NCBI GenBank assembly: GCA_016700135.1
Contig: CP065004.1
Location: 480,001-512,000 of the forward strand
Direction: 5' to 3'
Length of the DNA: 32,000 bases
Source: Candidatus Saccharimonadota bacterium
Lineage (GTDB): Bacteria > Patescibacteriota > Microgenomatia > UBA1406 > GWC2-37-13
Part shown: positions 4,836 through 30,126 of the stretch, piece by piece
Numbering within the stretch: the stretch's first letter is position 1
Layout of the letters: every line of letters begins with the position of its first letter
Made by a program: the position numbers and the translations under genes
The notes under the pieces: generated by a model
The model's input: only the letters and a program-made list of their open reading frames with translations
What the model was told of the DNA's origin: nothing
Databases searched by the model: none

Positions 4836-6071
4836 ATGGACGATATTGGCGACCAATCACAAACGCCACCACCAGAACAATCCGCAAAGCCGCAGGAAAC
4901 CGGCCCCACTCCCGAACAGAAACGGATTGTACGTACCGTTCTTATAGTTTTTAGTGTCCTCTTCTTTATCGTTATTACCGTTCTGGGTGTACTGGCTTAT
5001 ATTCAGTCTGCAAAAGGACCCGGAGAACCGACACCTACTCCCACGGCGGTTGACGCGGTAAGTCCAACTCCTCAGGATACAGATACAAACGGCTGGCAAA
5101 CATTTACAAGTACTGATTTCGGCATTTCAATCCAGTATCCTCCAAATTGGAAAAAGACAGACGGACAGTCATTTGAAAACGGGGACCTCTTCGGGGTCAT
5201 GATCATGGGAGAAACTCAGAGAGAAGCCACTGAACTTTATGACGGAGCAACCCTTACAATTGCAAATCCTATTACCGTTGAAAAAGACTACGAGACATGG
5301 GCAAAAGACTATTACACCACTCATCATGTGGATGAGTCTCAGCCTCTTGAGTTTTCAAACGAAACGATAAACGGCATCGAGTATCTGAAAGTATATACCT
5401 GCGGATTGGGGTGTTTTACCTATTACATTACGGAAAAAGGAGATTACGTCTACCAAATAGTAACCAGCGCAGACGGTCCTTCCGAAAAAGAATACAGGCA
5501 AACAATAGATAAAATGCTGGAAACAATCACATTTGAAGAGGCACAAATGACGGTTATGCCCTCTCCTCCGCCGGGAGCGCTTGCATTTTCATCTCCGGAT
5601 CTCGGCATCGGTTTTTTCTATCCGCAAAAAGTACAAAATATCCAATCGGTTGATGTAAAAGAGACAGGAAATAAAATATATGTTTTTATGACGAATACTG
5701 AGCCTGAGGACGGTCAATGGGTGGAAGTTTTCAGCAAAAATCCGGACGCCACGCTTGAGGAGGCAATAACACAGCATTTTTTGGCCGGAAAAGAAGATGG
5801 ATGTTATGTGACGGTAACCAAAACAGAAGGGTCAATAACAACGGCAATTATTGATTTCTCTTATGATCAGTCCAACGGGCTGGAAGGAATGTTTGAAAAA
5901 ACGAAATACTGTTCGGAGGACTACGCAAAAACAAACGGGATCAGGTATTTCTGGTATGATTCCGCTCACCCCGAAACATACCTCTTCTTCAGTATCGGAC
6001 AGTATGGAATCCCCGTCACAAGCACAGAAAACTGGCAGGATACGGTAAGATTGATCAGAATGCGTGAATAA
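4836..6071 (+). CDS. Hypothetical membrane-anchored extracytoplasmic protein
   Basis: 411 aa: Pro-rich N-terminus, one TM helix (VLIVFSVLFFIVITVLGVLAYI), a PT linker, then two similar modules, each opening with an F.YP motif (FGISIQYPPNW / LGIGFFYPQKV). Confidence 0.6.
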   Translation: MDDIGDQSQTPPPEQSAKPQETGPTPEQKRIVRTVLIVFSVLFFIVITVLGVLAYIQSAKGPGEPTPTPTAVDAVSPTPQDTDTNGWQTFTSTDFGISIQYPPNWKKTDGQSFENGDLFGVMIMGETQREATELYDGATLTIANPITVEKDYETWAKDYYTTHHVDESQPLEFSNETINGIEYLKVYTCGLGCFTYYITEKGDYVYQIVTSADGPSEKEYRQTIDKMLETITFEEAQMTVMPSPPPGALAFSSPDLGIGFFYPQKVQNIQSVDVKETGNKIYVFMTNTEPEDGQWVEVFSKNPDATLEEAITQHFLAGKEDGCYVTVTKTEGSITTAIIDFSYDQSNGLEGMFEKTKYCSEDYAKTNGIRYFWYDSAHPETYLFFSIGQYGIPVTSTENWQDTVRLIRMRE

Positions 6072-18596: not shown

Positions 18597-19958
18597 ATGT
18601 CCAAGGACGACAACTCATTCGTAAATGCTTTGATTATCTGGCCATTGAAATTCGTGGGGATGATTCTCCAACTCCTTTTTTTTGCGGCGTTTGTCTTTGC
18701 GGGTTGGTTCGTCCTGCAAATGGTCGGAGTCCTGAATGTACAGGTTCCGGTGTCCGGTGCTTCCATGCTTCCCACGTTGCCTGAGGAAGGGTATGTCCCG
18801 TTTCAGCGGTTTTATTATGACGGGCGGGTTCAGAAATTTATTCCTCAAACGATTGCAAAGGGGGACATCGTTGTTTTTGAGAATGACGAAACGCATGAAG
18901 AACTGGAAAAGCAGCAGAAAGACTCAAGCGGATTTGTAAAACGCGTTATAGGAGTGGCCGGAGATATCGTGCAGATTCGCGACGGTTTTGTCTATGTCAA
19001 CGGGAAGCGTCTTGAAGAACCGTATACCCTGAAGCCCCGCTCCACGTTCGGAGGGAAAGAAATCCAGGATTGCGAAGTTGTGAAAGTCCCGGAAGGCAAG
19101 CTGTTTGTGTTGGGAGATAATAGAAAATTGAGTATGGATTCCCGGCAGATAGGGCTTGTTTCAGTACAGGATGTCCAGTTTTATATCCCGTACGAGAAGC
19201 AGGAAAATGAGTTTGCAAATCGCTGGCGCGACTCATCACATGACTTTGATACAGAGAACGAATCACTGTTTAATGTCGATGATTTTGTGTTCCTTCTCAA
19301 TCAAAAACGGCGGGAAAACGATCTTTCTGAACTGAAGTACCAGCCCAAGCTGGAACGGTCCGCACAGTACCGGGCAGAAGTCATGCTGAAATACAATGAG
19401 TTTGATTCCGATGCTCCGCACAGCGGATATTCCATGAAAGATGCTATGAGTGACGCCAATTACTCAAACATCGTATACGGTGAGTTTCCGATGATCGGGT
19501 ACTATGACGCGGAAGAATTGTATGATGCTTTTATGGAACAGCCCGGTGCTTCAGAGTTTCTTTTAAACAAAGACTATGATGAAATCGGTGTTTCAACATT
19601 TGTCGGAGAACTCAATAACTGCCCGGTACAGGTGGTAGTTCAGCACCTGGCAGGATATGTCCCGCCCGACTACTCACAATCACAGATATCGGATTGGAAA
19701 GACGGTCTCTCAAGACTGCGAAAGATCCAACCCGGGTGGCAGCAGCTTAAATCTTATAACGATTTGTACTCTCAGAATAAGGCTGATATTGATAGGATCA
19801 ATGAAATACTCGACATCCGAATAGCCCGTTTTTCACAAATTATTCAGCGTATGGAGGCAAATCAATGGCTGACTGAACAAGAAAAATCCTGGATAAAGGA
19901 AGATACCAATCTTGCCGAAGAACAAAATCGACTGGCGGAAAGATTGAATGCCCGTTAG
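18597..19958 (+). CDS. lepB: Signal peptidase I (S26) fused to a CAP/SCP(YkwD)-like domain and a C-terminal helical tail
   Basis: SPase boxes SGASMLPTL, KRVIGVAGD and GDNRKLSMDSR lie in residues ~50-200. Residues ~225-353 follow the CAP/YkwD pattern (N..RR.N.L..L.....L..SA..RA..M......HSG......M......GE........EL..AFM..PG...LL...Y..IGV). Residues 354-453 are helical. Confidence 0.85.
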   Translation: MSKDDNSFVNALIIWPLKFVGMILQLLFFAAFVFAGWFVLQMVGVLNVQVPVSGASMLPTLPEEGYVPFQRFYYDGRVQKFIPQTIAKGDIVVFENDETHEELEKQQKDSSGFVKRVIGVAGDIVQIRDGFVYVNGKRLEEPYTLKPRSTFGGKEIQDCEVVKVPEGKLFVLGDNRKLSMDSRQIGLVSVQDVQFYIPYEKQENEFANRWRDSSHDFDTENESLFNVDDFVFLLNQKRRENDLSELKYQPKLERSAQYRAEVMLKYNEFDSDAPHSGYSMKDAMSDANYSNIVYGEFPMIGYYDAEELYDAFMEQPGASEFLLNKDYDEIGVSTFVGELNNCPVQVVVQHLAGYVPPDYSQSQISDWKDGLSRLRKIQPGWQQLKSYNDLYSQNKADIDRINEILDIRIARFSQIIQRMEANQWLTEQEKSWIKEDTNLAEEQNRLAERLNAR

Positions 19959-22418: not shown

Positions 22419-22865
22419 ATGAAGTGTCTTTTTTGTCAACACACGAATACTGAAGTCATTGAAACGCGCGTTTCAGAAAACAGAACCGCTATCAGAAGGC
22501 GCCGTTCTTGTCCGCAGTGCAAGAAAAGATTTACGACATATGAACGCATAGAGGAGCTGCCGATACTGGTTATCAAGAGAGATCTGAGAAGAGAGCGTTT
22601 TGACAGAAAGAAACTGATGAACGGCATATTTAAAGCAGTAGGGAAGACGACGGTGACAGCAGATCAGGTCGAAGATATCGTAAACCAGATAGAACAGGAT
22701 ATTACACAGGCAGGCAAAACGGAAGTCAGCAGCAGTGAGATAGGTAGTATGGTTGCTTACCAACTGAAAAACATAGATAAGATCGCGTACATCCGGTTTG
22801 CATCAGTGTTTAGAAGATTTGTCGATGTTGAAGAGTTTGAATTGGAGCTGAGAAAGCTCTCATGA
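22419..22865 (+). CDS. nrdR: Transcriptional repressor NrdR
   Basis: MKCLFCQHTNTEVIETR....RRRR.C..C..RFTTYE zinc ribbon followed by an ATP-cone. Confidence 0.95.
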   Translation: MKCLFCQHTNTEVIETRVSENRTAIRRRRSCPQCKKRFTTYERIEELPILVIKRDLRRERFDRKKLMNGIFKAVGKTTVTADQVEDIVNQIEQDITQAGKTEVSSSEIGSMVAYQLKNIDKIAYIRFASVFRRFVDVEEFELELRKLS

Positions 22866-22908: not shown

Positions 22909-25314
22909 ATGAAACTGACAGGTGTTTCAGAGAAAGTATTCCTTGACAGATACTCTCTCAAAGACATAAAGGGCAATCCAGTTGAAGCACAACCGGATGA
23001 GATGTGGCGCCGTATCGCCAATGCTGTCGCCGAGCAGGAAAAGCCTTCACAGCGCAAGAAATGGGCTGATGCATTCTATAATGCAATGGAGGATTTTAAG
23101 TATGTTCCCGGAGGCCGCATTCTTGCAGGCGCAGGTACAGGCTATTCGGTAACTTTTTATAACTGTTTTGTGATTCCGTCTCCGAAAGATTCCCGTGGAG
23201 GAATTCTGAATACATTGGGAGAAATGATTGAGATTATGGCTCGGGGAGGCGGTGTCGGAATTAACCTTTCCACACTTCGACCACGAGGGGCACGGGTTGA
23301 GAAAGTAAACGGATTTTCTTCGGGGCCCTGCAACTGGGCAGAGATATTCTCACTTGCTACTAAAGATATTATTCAGCAGGGCGGTACCCGTCGCGGAGCT
23401 CTTATGCTTATGCTCTGGGACTGGCACCCTGATATCGAAGAATTTATTACTGTAAAACAAGATCTTTCACGCATCAACGGAGCAAACCTTTCCGTTGCCG
23501 TTTCAGACTCCTTTATGGAAGCAGTCAAGAAAGATGAGGACTGGCCTCTTATTTTCCCGGATAAAAATGATCCTGAATATGACGAAGTGTGGGACGGGGA
23601 TATTGAGGGCTGGAAAGCGAAAGGAAAGAAAATCAAAGTGTATAAAGTTGTCAAAGCAAGAAAGATCTGGGATCTTATTGCTGAAGCTGCCTGGAAGTCT
23701 GCAGAGCCCGGAGTAGTGTTTATGGAGAGATACAACAAAATGCACAATAACTACTACTGGAATAAAATCATCTGCGTAAACCCATGCGGAGAAGAAGGTC
23801 TTCCGGGATGGGGAGTATGTAATCTTGGTTCTATCAATCTCTCAGCCTTTGTCAAAGGATATGAGGTTGATCGTGCCGGAACATTTGATTTTGAGGAACT
23901 TCGAAAGACAGTACGCATTGCAGTAAGACTCCAGGACAATGTTGTAGATATGGATCCGTACGTGTTTCCGGGGATAAAGAAGACCCAGCTTGAAGGAGAA
24001 AGAAGAATTGGTCTTGGGACTATGGGGCTCGGGGACACTCTTATTAAGCTTCATATTCGTTACGGTTCAGAAGAGTCTTTGAAGTTCATCGAGAAAGTTT
24101 ACAAGATGATTGCACATGAATCATACCTTGCATCTTCTGATAATGCGAAAGAGAAGGGGTCCTTCAAGAAATTTGACGGTGCTAAATTTGTGAAGAGCGG
24201 TTTCATGAAAACTCTTCCTGCCGAAATCAGAAAGAAAATAAAAAAAGACGGCATTAGAAACTCAGTGCTTCTCATGCAGGCTCCCACGGGATCAACTTCC
24301 CTTATGGCCAGTACAACATCAGGAATAGAGCCTGTATATGAATTTGAATTCATAAGGCGAGATCGTCTTGGAGAACATGCCATACGGCATCATCTCTATG
24401 ATGAATGGTACAAAAAACATGAAGCTGAGATGAAGGCCGGAACAATCAAAAGACCGGAGTACTTTGTATCAGCAAATGATCTTTCTCCTGAAGATCATGT
24501 CATGGTTCAGGCTGTCATTCAGAAATATGTTGATGCATCAATTTCGAAGACTGTCAATGCCCCGACCACACACACGGTTGACGATGTAAAAAGACTCTAT
24601 ACATTGGCATATGAACAGGGATTGAAGGGTATTGCCTATATGAGAGAGGGATCCCGTGCCGGTGTTCTTGAGAGAAAACCTGATGCCAAAGCTGCGCCGG
24701 ACAAAGCAGAACAGCCGAAAATGCAGATACCGACAGTAAAACCGCGACCGATGGTTGTTCACGGATCGACATACAAAATCGATACACCGGTCGGACGGGC
24801 ATATGTCACCATAAATACCAACGGCAATAATGAACCACATGAAGTATTTATGACAATCGGTAAAGCAGGGACAGATGTATTTGCCATGGCAGAAGGGCTG
24901 GGTCGTATGATCTCTATGTACTTTAGATCTACCGCTCATCTTCCGGCTGAGGAGCGCATCAAAAACGTCATCAACGAGCTTCAGGGAATCGGCGGCGGGC
25001 GCACGATGGGATTTGGAAAAGAACGTGTCCGCAGTATGCCTGATGCCGTAGCCAAAGTCTTGAAAATGCATTTTGAGTACTTGAATAAACAACGAACAGA
25101 GACTCAAAACGGCAACGGCCATACAACAGAAGTGAAGCTAGTGAGTGAAGTCGAACAGCCGGCACTTCTTGCCGAACAAGGTCAGCAACTGGTTGCTGCT
25201 GCAGACGTACCGAAAGAAAAGCATTTTGACATCTGTAAAGAATGCGGTCAGGCATTACTTGCACGTGAAGAAGGTTGTGCAAAGTGCTATGGCTGCGGTT
25301 ATGCAGAATGTTAA
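22909..25314 (+). CDS. nrdJ: Class II (adenosylcobalamin-dependent) ribonucleotide reductase
   Basis: 801 aa. Active-site VNPCGEEGL, the TGSTS segment and ISKTVN. The C-terminal Cys-rich tail is CKECGQALLAREEGCAKCYGCGYAEC. Confidence 0.95.
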   Translation: MKLTGVSEKVFLDRYSLKDIKGNPVEAQPDEMWRRIANAVAEQEKPSQRKKWADAFYNAMEDFKYVPGGRILAGAGTGYSVTFYNCFVIPSPKDSRGGILNTLGEMIEIMARGGGVGINLSTLRPRGARVEKVNGFSSGPCNWAEIFSLATKDIIQQGGTRRGALMLMLWDWHPDIEEFITVKQDLSRINGANLSVAVSDSFMEAVKKDEDWPLIFPDKNDPEYDEVWDGDIEGWKAKGKKIKVYKVVKARKIWDLIAEAAWKSAEPGVVFMERYNKMHNNYYWNKIICVNPCGEEGLPGWGVCNLGSINLSAFVKGYEVDRAGTFDFEELRKTVRIAVRLQDNVVDMDPYVFPGIKKTQLEGERRIGLGTMGLGDTLIKLHIRYGSEESLKFIEKVYKMIAHESYLASSDNAKEKGSFKKFDGAKFVKSGFMKTLPAEIRKKIKKDGIRNSVLLMQAPTGSTSLMASTTSGIEPVYEFEFIRRDRLGEHAIRHHLYDEWYKKHEAEMKAGTIKRPEYFVSANDLSPEDHVMVQAVIQKYVDASISKTVNAPTTHTVDDVKRLYTLAYEQGLKGIAYMREGSRAGVLERKPDAKAAPDKAEQPKMQIPTVKPRPMVVHGSTYKIDTPVGRAYVTINTNGNNEPHEVFMTIGKAGTDVFAMAEGLGRMISMYFRSTAHLPAEERIKNVINELQGIGGGRTMGFGKERVRSMPDAVAKVLKMHFEYLNKQRTETQNGNGHTTEVKLVSEVEQPALLAEQGQQLVAAADVPKEKHFDICKECGQALLAREEGCAKCYGCGYAEC

Positions 25315-25690: not shown

Positions 25691-26843
25691 TTACCGAAGT
25701 ACTTGACTCATCCATACTCTGATCCTGAAGATCCAGCCTTCAAAATAACTCTCAAGCTGGCGGTCATACTTTTTCACGGTATCAAATCCTTCCTTAGCTT
25801 TTGTAAGCGGTTTCTCAGTCGCCTGATCAAGCTTTTGTACATTTTCGGGATTTACTACTTCACGTGCCAGTTCTTTCGGCGATTTAATTTCGATAGGTTC
25901 TGATACTTGTTGCGGGTCAGAGGGATTCGGATCTTTCCGTCCGAACCAGGGAAGTGAGAAAGGACTTGATTCGGTCGGTTGAGGATCGTAGGGATTTCCG
26001 GGCATACCGGTCCATGTCGGGGCAGGTGTCCATGTAGGTACAGGTGTCCATGTTGCGTTTGGATCCGCCGGAGGAATAGTATTTGTCGGTTGTCCCGGCG
26101 GGACAGTAGGCTGATTTGTTGTTCCCGGTCTGGTCGTCGGTGTGGGCTGATTGGGCCTCAATGTGGCCGTTGGCGGTTGTGGTCTTGGAGTTGCAGTCGG
26201 CTCATTCGGTCTTGGAGTTGCTGTCGGCGGTGGAGTGGTGGGTCGCGGGGTATTGGTGGCAGTAGGCGGCGGGGGTGCCTGTGTGTTTGTCGGAGTAGGA
26301 TTTCCTCCCGGCATATTCGGAGCAAGACCGTATTTGGGGACCTTATTCCCGTTTTCATCTTTCTTTACACATCCGTATTCGTTAAAACCACCGGGAAGTC
26401 CCCAGTATTTACCACAATCTCGTTTGTCGCCTGAAAGCAAATCACAGTAATTCGGGTGACAGTGCCATCGTTCCATAAAACAGCAAAATCTCGAATCCTG
26501 ATATTGGACCATGTCTGCGCAGCAATCCGGCTGATGTTGAGAACAATAGTAACGTTGATACTCTGTTGTTGGGGGGCCAACGGGGCTTATTCTGATCACA
26601 GACATATGAATATCGGTCATCATCGTAAGTATTTTGCGGTGTTTTCGGTTTGCGCGTGCAGCCATCTGGGTAGCAGATATCCTGATCATCACAGGTGCAC
26701 TCTTCAACTGATTCAGATGCTTTGCTGGCGGTCGTAAAGAGCTTTCCTCTTTCGGAAGTGTATTGAGAAACGGAAATACTGATAATTACGGCAATGATAA
26801 AAAGAATGCTAACCATCATAAGCCGAACATCTGTTTTTTTCAT
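25691..26843 (-). pseudogene. Cys-rich, Pro/Thr-rich secreted surface protein split by a single-base frameshift in a C6 (plus-strand G6) tract
   Basis: Track ORF 26442..26843 supplies the signal anchor plus a Cys-rich start (MKKTDVRLMMVSILFIIAVIISI...ECTCDDQDICYPDGC...YVCDQNKPRWPP). Track ORF 25691..26707 continues the Cys-rich domain in another frame from ...PPTTEYQRYYCSQHQPDCC. The frames swap at G6 26571-26576. Removing one G gives ...RWPPTTEYQRYYC... and one ~383-aa protein. Confidence 0.7.
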
Positions 26844-26897: not shown

Positions 26898-27419
26898 ATG
26901 AGCATAACGACAAAAACAGGAGACAAAGGAGAAACCGCGCTTTTCGGAGGTAAAAGGGTAAAAAAATACGATCCGCAGGTGGAAGCTTATGGTTCTGTGG
27001 ATGAGGCAACCTCTTTTATCGGATCGGCAATTGAAGCGATTTCCGATAAAGATGTGACAGGCCTCCTTACGAATGTGCAGCTTACTTTATATATTCTTAT
27101 GGCACATTTGTCCGGATACAAGATGGATCGCAATAAAGTCGAAGATCACTTAAAAAGTATAGAAAAGGAAATTGTCCGTCTTGAAAATACGTTGCCGAAA
27201 CTGACCAGGTTCATTCTTCCGCAAGGGAGCGAGGAGGCATCACGGTTGCAGATAGCACGTGCGATGGTTCGATCCTCAGAGCGGCGGGTAACGGCGTATG
27301 TAGACCGTAAAACAGAACAAACTGCCGATGATATGATGGCGGTACAGTATCTCAACCGCCTTTCCGATCTCTTGTTTATGTTAGCCAGGAAATATACTCC
27401 GGAAGAACACCTTACCTAA
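26898..27419 (+). CDS. pduO: PduO-type ATP:cob(I)alamin adenosyltransferase
   Basis: TKTGDKGETALFGGKRV.K.D..VEAYGSVDE at the N-terminus and RAMVRSSERR later on, both family signatures. Confidence 0.9.
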   Translation: MSITTKTGDKGETALFGGKRVKKYDPQVEAYGSVDEATSFIGSAIEAISDKDVTGLLTNVQLTLYILMAHLSGYKMDRNKVEDHLKSIEKEIVRLENTLPKLTRFILPQGSEEASRLQIARAMVRSSERRVTAYVDRKTEQTADDMMAVQYLNRLSDLLFMLARKYTPEEHLT

Positions 27420-27744
27420 GCTCATCAATTTTAGCTGCCATAATAAAATCATTAAGACTTAAGCCTTGAATTTTCTGAGTCATAAGATCAATGAGTACAT
27501 TCCGAAAATTATGGACATAGATATCCGGATGATGCCCCTCTTCTTCGGCCAGTTCTGCAACTTGGTTCACGAAATCAATAGCCTCTCGGAAGTTTTTGAA
27601 AGTAAAATCACGACTGATTTGTCTTTCATCTACAACGCTCCAATCCTTGTGCAGTTTTCCGAGGTTTTCCATAATTGCCTCCCTTTTCATAGGAGGTGTA
27701 TCAATTGAGCAGGCTTCACATTTTTTTTGAGTAAGATTATTCAT
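27412..27744 (-). CDS. 4a-hydroxytetrahydrobiopterin (pterin-4-alpha-carbinolamine) dehydratase
   Basis: 110 aa. W......I.R.F.FKNF..A..FVN.VA.LAEEEGHHPDI...........L.T.....L...DF..A..ID pattern. Confidence 0.9.
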   Translation of the reverse strand: MNNLTQKKCEACSIDTPPMKREAIMENLGKLHKDWSVVDERQISRDFTFKNFREAIDFVNQVAELAEEEGHHPDIYVHNFRNVLIDLMTQKIQGLSLNDFIMAAKIDELR

Positions 27745-27805
27745 AAGTATGGGTTGATTTTTAATGCATGATGGTGTAATTTTACTATACGTTAAAAATA
27801 TAAAT

Positions 27806-27957
27806 GCTTGGTAAGCATCATCCCGCCGAGTAAGGGAAAAGATGCTAAGTATCAGGGAATGAGGTGTAATTCCTCAACTGTGCCGCAGCGGTAATTCCGA
27901 TTTTGATCGGATAAGTCCGAAGACCGACCAAGTCCTCTACCCCGAGCAGGGATATCT
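27806..27957 (+). promoter_or_regulatory. Cobalamin (AdoCbl) riboswitch plus expression platform
   Basis: The conserved core CAGGGAATGAGGTGTAATTCCTCAACTGTGCCGCAGCGGTAA (27853-27894) parallels the E. coli btuB leader core (AGGGAAUCCAGUGCGAAUCUGGAGCUGACGCGCAGCGGUAA). The B12 box AAGTCCGAAGACCGACC (27913-27929) parallels btuB AAGCCCGAAGACCUGCC. Supporting helices: P1 CTTGGT 27807-12 / ACCAAG 27927-32; AGCATC 27814-19 / GATGCT 27841-46; GAGG 27861-64 / CCTC 27872-75; TCCGAT 27896-901 / ATCGGA 27906-11. Confidence 0.85.
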
Positions 27958-29241
27958 ATGTCACCATCTGTCGTCGAATGCGAGACATGCGTCTTGCCAG
28001 AACAAGAACCGCAAATTATCGGAGAATTGCCTCTCGAGAGTACTTTCCCTCTTGATCCGGAGATAGAGTTTCGGGCGATAAATCGCACAAAAAGTGAAAC
28101 AGACCCGGATTACCTAACTCCCGAACAGCTCAACTACTACCAGAGGGAAAATTTAGTCTGTTTTTTATGTGAATTTGCAGGTAAAGTACCGTACAAAAAA
28201 ATTCCGGGAATTGTTACCGATACCGGGAGACTGAAAATCTGTAATATGGATGTCCTGCAAATGGCTGAAAAAGCGGCAGATATTGCGGGAAAAGGATCAA
28301 GGGAAGAGAGCGAACTCATCGGCTGGCAAAAAGCAATTGATTCTATACAATGGGGAGCAAACAGAGTCGATATCGTATCTCCACCGGCAATTGCGGACTA
28401 TATGCTGACATTTTCTCTGTATATTGATGATTATGACCCCAGAATCGGCGGGCGGCCGGTCAGTCAGATTGTATCAAGGCGCGATGAACAGATGGGTTCT
28501 CTCGAGGTAAGTCGCGGAATTTATCAGAATCTTGCTCAAAACGCCGGACAGCATTATGATATCGCTCATTTTTCCGGTCCGGAAGACTTTATTACCAATC
28601 CAATAGTTCATCATACAGAAGACAGTGACAGTCTTGCCCGTGCTGTCACCAGCATCGGTGTCGATGAGAATGACATCGTTTACTCCGAACGATTTGAGCA
28701 GGAAGTACGTGAAGTGCTTGAGCCGATGATACAGGAGTATCTGCGTCAGGTAGACGAACTGTCCTATTTAAGCAGCAGCGAAAAGCATGAATGGCCGTAT
28801 GAAGAAAAAAAACATGCATTAGATGCTCATTTACATACCATGTTCAGTTTTGCAAAAAGGATCGGAAGAGAACTGCAGACGAATTACTGGAATACCGATG
28901 TCGGACAAACCGTTCGTGATATCATGAAACTGCAAACGATTGATCCCATGCAGTATTATGCACATGCAGAAGCAATCCGGCAATCGGAAAGAGCCACAAT
29001 TACAGGAGGCACCTCCTGTCCCAGTCTGAATTCTACATCTGCGATGGAGAGCTTATCAGGGTTTAGTGAATCCGGCATGTCCTTCAATACGGCAATTCAG
29101 AGTTTTATGCAAGGTGAATCAAAAAGTAAAAAAACACTCGAATGCACCTGTCCGAATTGTGATAAAAAAGTTGCGGCCCGAATTGAAAACAATAAAATCA
29201 CCTGTCCCAACTGCAAGGCATCGGCACCGTATAAATGCTAA
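27958..29241 (+). CDS. Uncharacterised 427-aa soluble protein with N-terminal Cys cluster and C-terminal zinc ribbon (riboswitch-controlled)
   Basis: The ATG lies 26 nt after riboswitch P1. No TM segments. Cys clusters: CETC...CFLC (N-terminal) and CTCPNC-x14-CPNC-x7-C as the very C-terminus. I recognise no family. Confidence 0.7.
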   Translation: MSPSVVECETCVLPEQEPQIIGELPLESTFPLDPEIEFRAINRTKSETDPDYLTPEQLNYYQRENLVCFLCEFAGKVPYKKIPGIVTDTGRLKICNMDVLQMAEKAADIAGKGSREESELIGWQKAIDSIQWGANRVDIVSPPAIADYMLTFSLYIDDYDPRIGGRPVSQIVSRRDEQMGSLEVSRGIYQNLAQNAGQHYDIAHFSGPEDFITNPIVHHTEDSDSLARAVTSIGVDENDIVYSERFEQEVREVLEPMIQEYLRQVDELSYLSSSEKHEWPYEEKKHALDAHLHTMFSFAKRIGRELQTNYWNTDVGQTVRDIMKLQTIDPMQYYAHAEAIRQSERATITGGTSCPSLNSTSAMESLSGFSESGMSFNTAIQSFMQGESKSKKTLECTCPNCDKKVAARIENNKITCPNCKASAPYKC

Positions 29242-29290: not shown

Positions 29291-29746
29291 ATGTCAGACA
29301 CAAAGAACGTAACCGACAATCATACATCGATAAAGCACCTGATTGATGACCACCATGCTTCAAATCAGAGTTCTCATTCCAAAGAGGGTGAACCTGCGCG
29401 GCCCCGTTCGGTTGAGAAGCTGCGGGATGAAGAGTATATTGCACCGGAAAACGAACCGACAATAGAAGACAAAGAACTGGAAAAATATATTGAGATTGAA
29501 CGTGATGTTCCGGAGATTCACCCTGATCTTAAAAAAGCGGGACTGCAGGCGCTGGACACGACATCTCTTGATCCGAAACAGAGGGTGCGGTTGCCTATTG
29601 CAGATGAAGAGATTATGAACGGACTGGATGAACCGTTGTCATCTTCCTTCCGTTGGCTGGCGGAGTTTGCTCTATTCATGCTCAAAAGGGCACATCTTGC
29701 CCTGAAACGGGTGCACGGAAAAGTAGTAAGAGTGATTCAAAAGTAA
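29291..29746 (+). CDS. Uncharacterised 151-aa protein with a His-rich N-terminus and an amphipathic C-terminal helix
   Basis: NHTSIKHLIDDHHASNQSSHSKE has 6 His in 23 residues. The C-terminus is FRWLAEFALFMLKRAHLALKRVHGKVVRV. It lies 49 nt downstream of the 427-aa gene. Confidence 0.5.
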   Translation: MSDTKNVTDNHTSIKHLIDDHHASNQSSHSKEGEPARPRSVEKLRDEEYIAPENEPTIEDKELEKYIEIERDVPEIHPDLKKAGLQALDTTSLDPKQRVRLPIADEEIMNGLDEPLSSSFRWLAEFALFMLKRAHLALKRVHGKVVRVIQK

Positions 29747-29802: not shown

Positions 29803-30126
29803 TTATTCGTTTGTAACCCGCTTAATTTCTTCCTCAAAGCCTTCCTTACTATGGGCTCCGACGAATTGGTTCTTTACTGTACCGTCCTTGAAGATTAAAA
29901 AGGTCGGGATTGAAAATACTGAATAATTGCCGGCAAGTTCCTGATTTGCATCTACGTCAACTTTAACAAATTTTACATCTTTCATCTCTTCAGACAATTC
30001 TTCAAGTATCGGAGCAACAACTTTACATGGGCCGCACCATTCGGCATAAAAATCTACGACTACTACGCCTTTGTGATCAACAACGTCGTTTTGAAATGTT
30101 TCTGATGTTACTTGTACTGCGGCCAT
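29803..30126 (-). CDS. trxA: Thioredoxin
   Basis: 107 aa with the WCGPCK active site. Confidence 0.95.
   Translation of the reverse strand: MAAVQVTSETFQNDVVDHKGVVVVDFYAEWCGPCKVVAPILEELSEEMKDVKFVKVDVDANQELAGNYSVFSIPTFLIFKDGTVKNQFVGAHSKEGFEEEIKRVTNE

Follow-up and report, generated by a model that had tools for sequence, protein, structure and literature searches.

A 32,000-nucleotide (nt) stretch of a Candidatus Saccharimonadota genome (contig CP065004.1 of assembly GCA_016700135.1, positions 480,001 to 512,000 of the forward strand; hereafter the window) carries, immediately behind a cobalamin riboswitch, a gene for a 427-amino-acid (aa) protein that we call X. Three properties of this gene are established by the comparison of X with its relatives: X is under cobalamin-riboswitch control throughout its family, it is genetically tied to the gene for PduO, the adenosyltransferase that makes adenosylcobalamin, and its protein has conserved thiols while matching no known family. 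The riboswitch itself is ordinary; the protein that it regulates is undescribed, and we take it to be a core component of a B12 salvage regulon. An earlier note on this DNA had described a riboswitch-regulated protein of no recognised family and a candidate for a new corrinoid-related function; the core of this claim is now strongly supported, the link to corrinoids being probable. We consider it probable that X has some part in acquiring or trafficking B12. The more specific reading that we favour, namely a cytosolic, thiol-based corrinoid-processing or hand-off protein that feeds PduO, we hold at a little under even confidence.

The cobalamin riboswitch and its pairing with X

The riboswitch and the gene behind it occupy the following positions of the window.

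27793 to 27946, plus strand: cobalamin riboswitch aptamer (RF00174, clan CL00101) in the 5' leader of X; 55.8 bits, E 1.8e-11
27958 to 29241, plus strand: X, a soluble acidic protein of 427 aa (net charge -23), here the founding member of an undescribed family
28027 to 28617, plus strand: alpha/beta domain of X (residues ~24-220), delimited by AlphaFold2 secondary structure and conservation
28630 to 28992, plus strand: helical domain of X (residues ~225-345), which varies in length and is strongly shortened in the 264-330-aa forms
29008 to 29022, plus strand: GGTSCP loop with the family-invariant Cys354, a flexible segment (predicted local distance difference test, pLDDT, <50)
29134 to 29238, plus strand: predicted C-terminal zinc ribbon with two extra Cys, C396-x-C398-x2-C401-x14-C416-x2-C419-x7-C427(end)

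The open reading frame (ORF) of X was confirmed in position, strand and length as the earlier note gave it, and its riboswitch call was upheld independently by Rfam, with a match to RF00174 that spans model positions 1-189 of 189, stands well clear of the gathering score of 31.5 and is the sole Rfam match in the window. The aptamer ends 11 nt before the ATG of X, and no terminator-like hairpin lies between the two, an arrangement for which control at translation initiation is the simplest explanation and probably the correct one. No expression platform could be recognised in the minimum-free-energy fold of the leader (z -0.82). Set against the known cobalamin riboswitch regulons (RF00174/RF01689), the leader is a standard member in its usual position and strand, whereas gene X belongs to no family earlier tied to such regulons in searchable sources; literature searches on CPR (candidate phyla radiation) cobalamin riboswitches, on DUF6580 and on a riboswitch with a zinc ribbon found nothing relevant.

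The link between X and the riboswitch holds nearly family-wide. Of the 24 distinct loci syntenic with the window, 20 have an aptamer of the cobalamin clan (RF00174 or RF01689) at the Rfam gathering score immediately 5' of X and in the same orientation; sub-threshold matches sit at the proper place in L006, L008 and L022, and at L019 (1 of the 24) no aptamer was found upstream of X, even below threshold. Divergent metagenome loci carry a gathering-score aptamer in 16 of the 20 sampled. An nhmmer riboswitch profile trained on 35 Rfam-verified instances, applied to loci with a complete X and at least 150 nt of upstream sequence, recovered the riboswitch in 49/53 eligible loci (43 of them within 150 nt), was positive at 34 of the 38 loci outside its training set, and gave zero matches elsewhere in 421 kb.

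The pairing is independent of synteny and extends to members only ~20% identical that lie in unrelated gene neighbourhoods. At L032, where a 299-aa X lies among unrelated genes on a 773-kb contig with both NrdJ and PduO absent within 6 kb, a 43-bit aptamer is found 12 nt upstream. Short-form X genes beside VIT1, RskA_C-like or glutaredoxin-domain genes likewise keep the riboswitch; in loci of the L041 type the gene called next after X runs in the other direction, and short-form X appears to be monocistronic behind its riboswitch.

Two annotation matters concern these leaders. The called or longest-ORF starts of X at L009:338, L087:3830, L057:65 and L111:1823 overlap the aptamer, and the true starts probably lie further downstream. 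A cluster of "conserved" 60-79-aa ORFs, antisense to the riboswitch and directly upstream of X in L037, L041, L044, L045, L053, L058, L072, L081, L099, L105, L106 and L111, is almost certainly an artefact of the conservation of the riboswitch sequence and not a gene.

Coupling of X to PduO

The long-form X island has the order NrdR-NrdJ-PduO-[riboswitch]-X-Y-thioredoxin (convergent), Y being a small protein considered further below. Around X, the window contains the following genes.

22419 to 22865, plus strand: NrdR repressor (PF22811, PF03477)
22909 to 25314, plus strand: NrdJ, adenosylcobalamin-dependent ribonucleotide reductase (RNR) with a TSCPD domain and a six-Cys CRD-type tail; TIGR02504, 565 bits against a cut-off of 399.95
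26898 to 27419, plus strand: PduO-type ATP:cob(I)alamin adenosyltransferase; PF01923, E 5.7e-49; TIGR00636, 150.7 bits against a cut-off of 108.45
27412 to 27744, minus strand: pterin-4a-carbinolamine dehydratase, between PduO (8-nt overlap) and the riboswitch
29291 to 29746, plus strand: Y, a 151-aa protein, 49 nt downstream of X on the same strand
29803 to 30126, minus strand: thioredoxin, convergent with X-Y; TIGR01068, 120.7 bits

Apart from NrdJ, no B12-dependent enzyme is seen in these loci. PduO is the neighbour that X keeps most constantly: its gene directly precedes that of X in the syntenic loci and in some 20 metagenome loci. X tracks PduO more faithfully than NrdJ; L005 has PduO and no NrdJ within 6 kb. 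The order RNR-riboswitch-PduO-X occurs in four loci, with a gap between PduO and X of 0 nt in L059, L089 and L100 and of 3 nt in L038, and the riboswitch of L059 is also above the Rfam gathering score. It is this directly upstream position of PduO, together with the single riboswitch that precedes a contiguous PduO-X in these four loci, that leads us to favour, among the three roles that had been suggested for X at the outset, that of a soluble factor feeding PduO.

The same neighbourhood can be asked about the second of those suggestions, a B12-independent backup, here taken to be a substitute for use when NrdJ lacks its cofactor that would provide deoxynucleotides, for example, via salvage or DNA uptake. 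Riboswitch-repressed B12-independent isozymes beside B12-dependent ones are a known pattern (nrdAB, nrdDG, metE), which such a substitute would match. X does lie within the NrdR-NrdJ cluster, its zinc ribbon resembles nucleic-acid-binding ribbons, and it is followed by a ComFC-like protein (double zinc ribbon plus phosphoribosyltransferase) in seven loci (L038:2537-3271, L059, L078, L101, L103, L104 and probably L029) and by ATPases resembling type IV coupling proteins (T4CP) in about nine. However, X follows PduO and not NrdJ (L005; the PduO-X operons), and co-regulation of an adenosyltransferase with a B12-independent bypass makes little sense; moreover, Pfam and NCBIfam scans of X give no RNR, kinase, nuclease or P-loop signature, and short-form X occurs with no RNR nearby. 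A backup of this kind is less consistent with the PduO coupling, and we regard it as improbable. SmpB and tmRNA often lie near the ComFC-like gene, whose place behind X may reflect nothing more than conserved gene order, or may point to DNA uptake.

The thioredoxin that the earlier note placed about 560 nt downstream of X is indeed there, at 562 nt, albeit on the minus strand and convergent with X. Its position is kept in most long-form loci, and the analogous spot in five short-form loci without NrdJ is taken by a convergent glutaredoxin-domain protein, a 206-aa protein with DUF302-like and glutaredoxin domains downstream of short-form X (L041:5441-6061; also L045, L053, L099 and L106). At L081, a 91-aa member of the same BLAST cluster as this protein lies upstream of X.

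Candidates for B12 uptake are also present. Between PduO and the switch, L013 encodes a DUF4430 protein and a DUF6580 membrane protein (L013:4767-5165 and 5131-5730), and ORFs of like size and position are found in L016, L023, L024 and L028, and probably also in L067 and L079. The DUF4430 protein resembles the C-terminal (beta-domain-like) domain of transcobalamin-1 (E 5.8e-4), and the sole PDB match of the DUF6580 protein, over its full length, is 6FNP chain A (E 0.18), which we take to be the ECF-CbrT B12 transporter. The two are plausible uptake components, likely a B12 binder and S-component pair, and their genes mark the locus as a B12-use island; their presence suggests that membrane transport at X loci is done by genes other than X.

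The X family

An exhaustive phmmer search with X of 1.84 billion cluster representatives (50% identity clusters) yields relatives in 169 clusters at E<=1e-3 and in 105 at E<=1e-10, mostly of 380-480 aa. A search with the codon pattern of the tail gives 81 metagenome loci, the X family being encoded in 80 of them, with many short forms of 264-330 aa. Profile searches from two X-family alignments add no further members and no named families, and no fused Pfam domain was found in the X members scanned, ten of the longest included. Family loci with informative source names are from Roizmanbacteria, Microgenomates or Patescibacteria, and a protein identical to X is annotated as [quoted passage not shown], which bears out the CPR origin that the earlier note had guessed. 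The title "uncultured Gammaproteobacteria bacterium", borne by L010, L011, L015, L017, L018, L020 and L023-L027, looks like a placeholder mislabel, these loci being syntenic with those of Roizmanbacteria and Microgenomates; L010 is 99% identical to the window.

That X falls into no recognised family and has no transmembrane (TM) segment, as first claimed, is borne out. The maximum Kyte-Doolittle 19-residue mean is 0.97, and there is no signal-like N-terminus. Searches of Pfam, NCBIfam and PDB sequences give no match to X beyond sub-threshold zinc-ribbon models, and profile and AlphaFold/Foldseek searches return no homology or fold match to a characterised family (Pfam, NCBIfam, PDB, Foldseek). 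A canonical B12-binding domain (Rossmann-like, DxHxxG) has no Pfam match in the 43 X-family members scanned, and X matches none of the membrane B12 transporter families (BtuCDF, ECF-CbrT, BtuM) by homology or hydropathy. Resemblances to TraG-D_C (E 0.13) and IcmE (E 0.15) were dismissed as noise. The letters TSCP of the GGTSCP loop recall the TSCPD domain, a likeness that we take as coincidence, with 0 members matching PF12637 and the rest of X without RNR/TSCPD similarity.

Conservation within the family is concentrated in a few places. In a 43-sequence alignment E119, C354 (in the GGxSCP loop) and the ribbon cysteines C398, C401, C416 and C419 are invariant, while Y61, E72, R115, E116, G122, S141, Y148, S185, P215 and Y261 are near-invariant; C354 is invariant in all six family alignments. 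The conserved polar set of the alpha/beta domain comprises Y61, E64, N65, E72, K76, R115, E116, E119, S141-P142 (WxSPPK), Y148, R174, E177, S185 and P215. A divergent set of relatives shares with X only the R..E motif, WxSPP, the loop Cys and the conserved tail, which in that set reads KTLxCTCPxCxKKVxAxIxNGKIxCPxCxxSAPYxC and is the most conserved part of the X family. The N-terminal Cys cluster that had been pointed out in X is present in the window protein (C8, C11, C68, C71) but is not a family feature; it is confined to the closest clade, with FLxEF at that position elsewhere.

AlphaFold2 models of window X (pLDDT 88.1, predicted template modelling score, pTM, 0.81) and of a 299-aa short form (pLDDT 88.7, pTM 0.75) have a common layout, in which N-terminal helices, an alpha/beta domain with strand order beta-beta-alpha-alpha-beta-beta-beta, a helical module, a low-confidence Cys loop and a C-terminal ribbon follow one another. 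The drop in pLDDT falls at residues 353-361 of window X and at the equivalent residues 243-262 of the short form. Foldseek against the PDB gives no match at E<=1e-3 for either model; the only trend is toward PAS-like domains at non-significant E values, a weak lead, and matches to Hsp90-N/GHKL, TagF and histidine kinases were dismissed (probability <0.4, TM <0.2).

The cysteine tail and zinc ribbon

X ends in LECTCPNC-x14-CPNC-x7-C(end) and the NrdJ of the window in CKEC-x10-CAKC-x2-C-x4-C(end), both exactly as the earlier note wrote them. Window X has six C-terminal Cys, and not every family member does. The CPNC-x14-CPNC element provides two invariant CxxC knuckles, the AlphaFold2 model places strands at 393-397, 404-410, 413-415 and 422-424, and the X profile matches eL43/L37ae zinc ribbons (E 2e-3); sequence and model both point to a zinc ribbon at the C-terminus.

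The extra cysteines are distributed in a striking manner when 145 non-redundant X tails are classified by raw count, with related sequences counted equally. A C-terminal Cys is found in 73/74 tails that have C396 and no preceding Cys, in 0/32 that have a CC doublet (positions 395-396), in 2/9 that have Cys at 395 only, and in 29/30 that have Cys at neither position. The terminal Cys and the CC doublet are thus mutually exclusive (73/74 vs 0/32), and the family seems to need one extra thiol beside the first zinc knuckle, which either position could supply.

The earlier note had heard an echo of the NrdJ tail in that of X. What stands of this is a generic zinc ribbon with extra Cys, and nothing beyond. 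Like the CRD of NrdJ, X has six Cys at its C-terminus, two CxxC knuckles and extra Cys that include the last or near-last residue; the spacing differs, however (C-x-CxxC-x14-CxxC-x7-C in X vs CxxC-x9/10-CxxCxxC-x4/5-C in NrdJ), and the 150-220-aa hydrophobic CRD body of NrdJ is absent from X, leaving a likeness at the level of the zinc ribbon only.

This likeness is nonetheless the starting point for a further explanation, that X is a redox partner of CRD-type NrdJ, acting as electron donor to its six-Cys zinc tail or in the maturation of that tail. In the CRD tail of class II RNR NrdJ, four Cys hold Zn and two relay electrons (PMC5704485), and neither thioredoxins nor glutaredoxin could reduce the NrdJd of S. 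nassauensis, whose electron donor is reported as unknown (PMC5704485). The six-Cys CRD array closes all 26 non-redundant syntenic NrdJ tails that were extracted, the C-terminus of X likewise combines a Zn ribbon with two extra Cys, and hhalign of X tails against NrdJ tails gives a probability of 71% (E 3.8e-5). That hhalign match covers only 31 columns and is dominated by cysteines, however; a factor on which active NrdJ depends should not be repressed by B12, and short-form X lies far from any NrdJ. We accordingly think a dedicated NrdJ partner very unlikely.

The ribbon also invites the idea that X is a regulator or binds nucleic acid, and is only indirectly connected with B12. No part of X is better conserved than this ribbon, which resembles those of eL43/L37ae, and a PAS-like topology is typical of sensors. 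On the other hand, the many conserved polar residues of the alpha/beta domain, together with the invariant Ser-Pro and loop Cys, look like parts of an enzyme or ligand site, no helix-turn-helix or other DNA-binding domain was found in X, and the coupling to PduO is tight. Of all the explanations considered here, we give this one the least credence.

The neighbour Y and the T4CP-like ATPase

The N-terminal part of Y is acidic and probably disordered, with the motifs N[FY]TPIDD, SKExEP, PxDLKKxGL and KLPISDEKI, and its C-terminus is a basic amphipathic helix; there is no Pfam or NCBIfam match. A role for Y as a membrane anchor was dismissed on hydropathy (Y maximum 0.84; family maximum 1.41). 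Y follows X by 4-50 nt in most long-form loci and is not next to short-form X; it is likely an operon partner of X in the long-form clades only.

In one clade the coding sequences of the Y homologue and of a ~780-aa DUF8128/TrwB_AAD_bind/TraG-D_C (T4CP-like) ATPase overlap translationally, by 4 nt in L006. Such Y-ATPase pairs are found at L006:7216-9968, L008:7356-9180 and L033:11221-13991, and also in L046, L093 and L115; X, Y and the ATPase are co-oriented in L006, L008, L046, L093 and L115. In L033/L034, Y stays with the ATPase at a distance of 1.9 kb and three genes from X. Taken together, the short forms without Y, the detachment in L033/L034 and the overlap of Y with the ATPase argue that Y is not a universal partner of X. 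The close window relatives L001 and L002 have PrgI-, TraC- and VirB4-like genes ~2 kb downstream of X.

These arrangements bear on the possibility that X, with Y and in some lineages the ATPase, is a B12 acquisition device, either a high-affinity cytosolic trap that makes uptake by a solitary S-component directional or part of a host-directed import machine in episymbionts. Uptake genes are the commonest cobalamin riboswitch targets, with which such a device would fit, and the close spacing of Y behind X, the co-orientation of X, Y and the ATPase (with the 4-nt overlap in L006) and the genes resembling those of type IV secretion systems in close relatives could all be counted in its favour. 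Yet neither X nor Y has a TM segment, short-form X without Y or ATPase keeps the riboswitch, Y in L033/L034 has gone with the ATPase and not with X, and several loci already have uptake candidates of a known kind (DUF4430, CbrT-like DUF6580). The third of the original suggestions, a new uptake system formed by X with its 151-aa neighbour, is weakened by the same absence of Y beside short-form X, its separation in L033/L034 and the lack of TM segments in either protein, and we judge an acquisition device of either type to be unlikely.

Other features of the loci

The pterin-4a-carbinolamine dehydratase gene appears in no clade but the closest one (window, L001, L010) and is an odd companion in a CPR genome. 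Between NrdJ and PduO, the window has a Pro/Thr-rich 338-aa ORF without family match (25691-26707, minus strand), the gene model of which is uncertain, and a 133-aa ORF that overlaps it (26442-26843, minus strand) and has a hydrophobic N-terminus; L001 and L002 carry a minus-strand gene of 325-390 aa at the spot of the 338-aa ORF. Tandem NrdJ paralogues, both above the TIGR02504 cut-off, occur at L006:882-5009, L008:1101-5206 and L033:2590-6795, the first with TSCPD and the second without TSCPD and ending in a six-Cys tail. A group I intron (RF00028, 67.6 bits) is found at L049:3091-3296, ~500 nt downstream of short-form X. Elsewhere in the window, a 453-aa ORF (18597-19958, plus strand) fuses a signal peptidase S26 domain to a CAP (cysteine-rich secretory protein) domain.

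A proposed role in adenosylcobalamin supply

Within the reading that we favour, X would act in adenosylcobalamin supply, either at the step that leads directly to PduO or alongside that enzyme. Under B12 shortage the leader would be free of ligand and X (plus Y in the window clade) would be translated; when B12 is plentiful, the aptamer would fold beside the ribosome-binding region and X would be switched off. The alpha/beta domain of X may bind the incoming corrinoid (HO-, Me- or CN-cobalamin), with the loop C354 as a potential cobalt ligand or nucleophile. The zinc-ribbon tail and its extra Cys pair (C396 + C427, or the CC doublet) could then work as a thiol/disulfide relay that thioredoxin or glutaredoxin would recharge. 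X would in this way remove the upper ligand and/or reduce the cobalt, and PduO would then receive cob(II)/cob(I)alamin from it. The analysis shows the riboswitch and its family-wide link to X, the PduO-X operons, the conserved, covarying cysteines and the lack of known homologues; that X binds corrinoid, how it would act on it, that its tail has a redox function and which proteins it works with are inferred.

The proposal is best judged beside known systems. CblC/MMACHC (with CblD/MMADHC) is the eukaryotic and, in some cases, bacterial cobalamin beta-ligand transferase and decyanase, and CblD forms a Cys-S-Co bond. The role proposed for X is the same as that of CblC, namely soluble removal of the upper ligand by thiol chemistry with the product going to the adenosyltransferase branch, and the architecture is loosely alike (an alpha/beta domain plus a helical module). 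X has, however, no sequence similarity to MMACHC (Pfam, NCBIfam, PDB), nor does Foldseek match it to MMACHC in the PDB at E<=1e-3 with either model; CblC employs a glutathione/flavin site, where X would have a Zn ribbon and protein cysteines, and CblC is not, to our knowledge, riboswitch-controlled in the manner of X. BtuM, a solitary S-component that transports B12, uses a Cys as cobalt ligand, acts as a decyanase and typically lies behind a cobalamin riboswitch; it has in common with X this setting and the idea of a single conserved Cys acting on cobalt, but BtuM is an integral membrane protein, and X has neither a TM segment nor similarity to it. Cobalamin reductases of the PduS, CobR and flavodoxin type serve adenosyltransferases; X is likewise genetically coupled to such an enzyme, and the delivery of reduced corrinoid to it is the task proposed for X. 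They differ in that no flavin, Fe-S or NAD(P)H-binding domain is detected in X by Pfam and NCBIfam scans, and any reduction by X would be thiol-based.

Several observations count against a corrinoid-processing role. No corrinoid-binding motif, domain or fold is detected in X (Pfam, NCBIfam, PDB, Foldseek), and its zinc ribbon is of a type usual in nucleic-acid-binding proteins. PduO is outside the riboswitch-controlled unit in the window and in most loci, and the switch is not detectable at L019, L033, L078 and L115. In some loci the switch precedes X and not the putative transporter genes, the kind of gene that such riboswitches usually control, which is unusual for a salvage regulon. The adjoining thioredoxin is equally explained by NrdJ, and the counts of Cys covariation carry no phylogenetic correction.

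Beyond the role itself, there is a fair chance that X is categorically new in fold and chemistry. A fuller version of the proposal, in which both the fold of X and its class of corrinoid-processing protein would be new, with protein thiols as the only reactive groups, a CPR counterpart of CblC/CblD whose tail chemistry possibly also contacts the six-Cys tail of NrdJ, we treat as speculative and on the unlikely side.

Significance

Many CPR/Patescibacteria cannot make B12 and need it for their only ribonucleotide reductase, and we know of no CblC, PduS or other known cobalamin-processing step annotated among them. With its near-universal B12 riboswitch and its sometimes translational abutment to PduO, X is the best available candidate for the missing step from cobalamin to adenosylcobalamin in these bacteria; if this is true, a new protein fold and a new chemistry would be added to B12 trafficking. 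X is also a concrete, testable candidate that bears on the search for the reductant of CRD-type class II RNRs, and the conserved riboswitch-X pair provides a marker for B12 auxotrophy in uncultured bacteria with small genomes.

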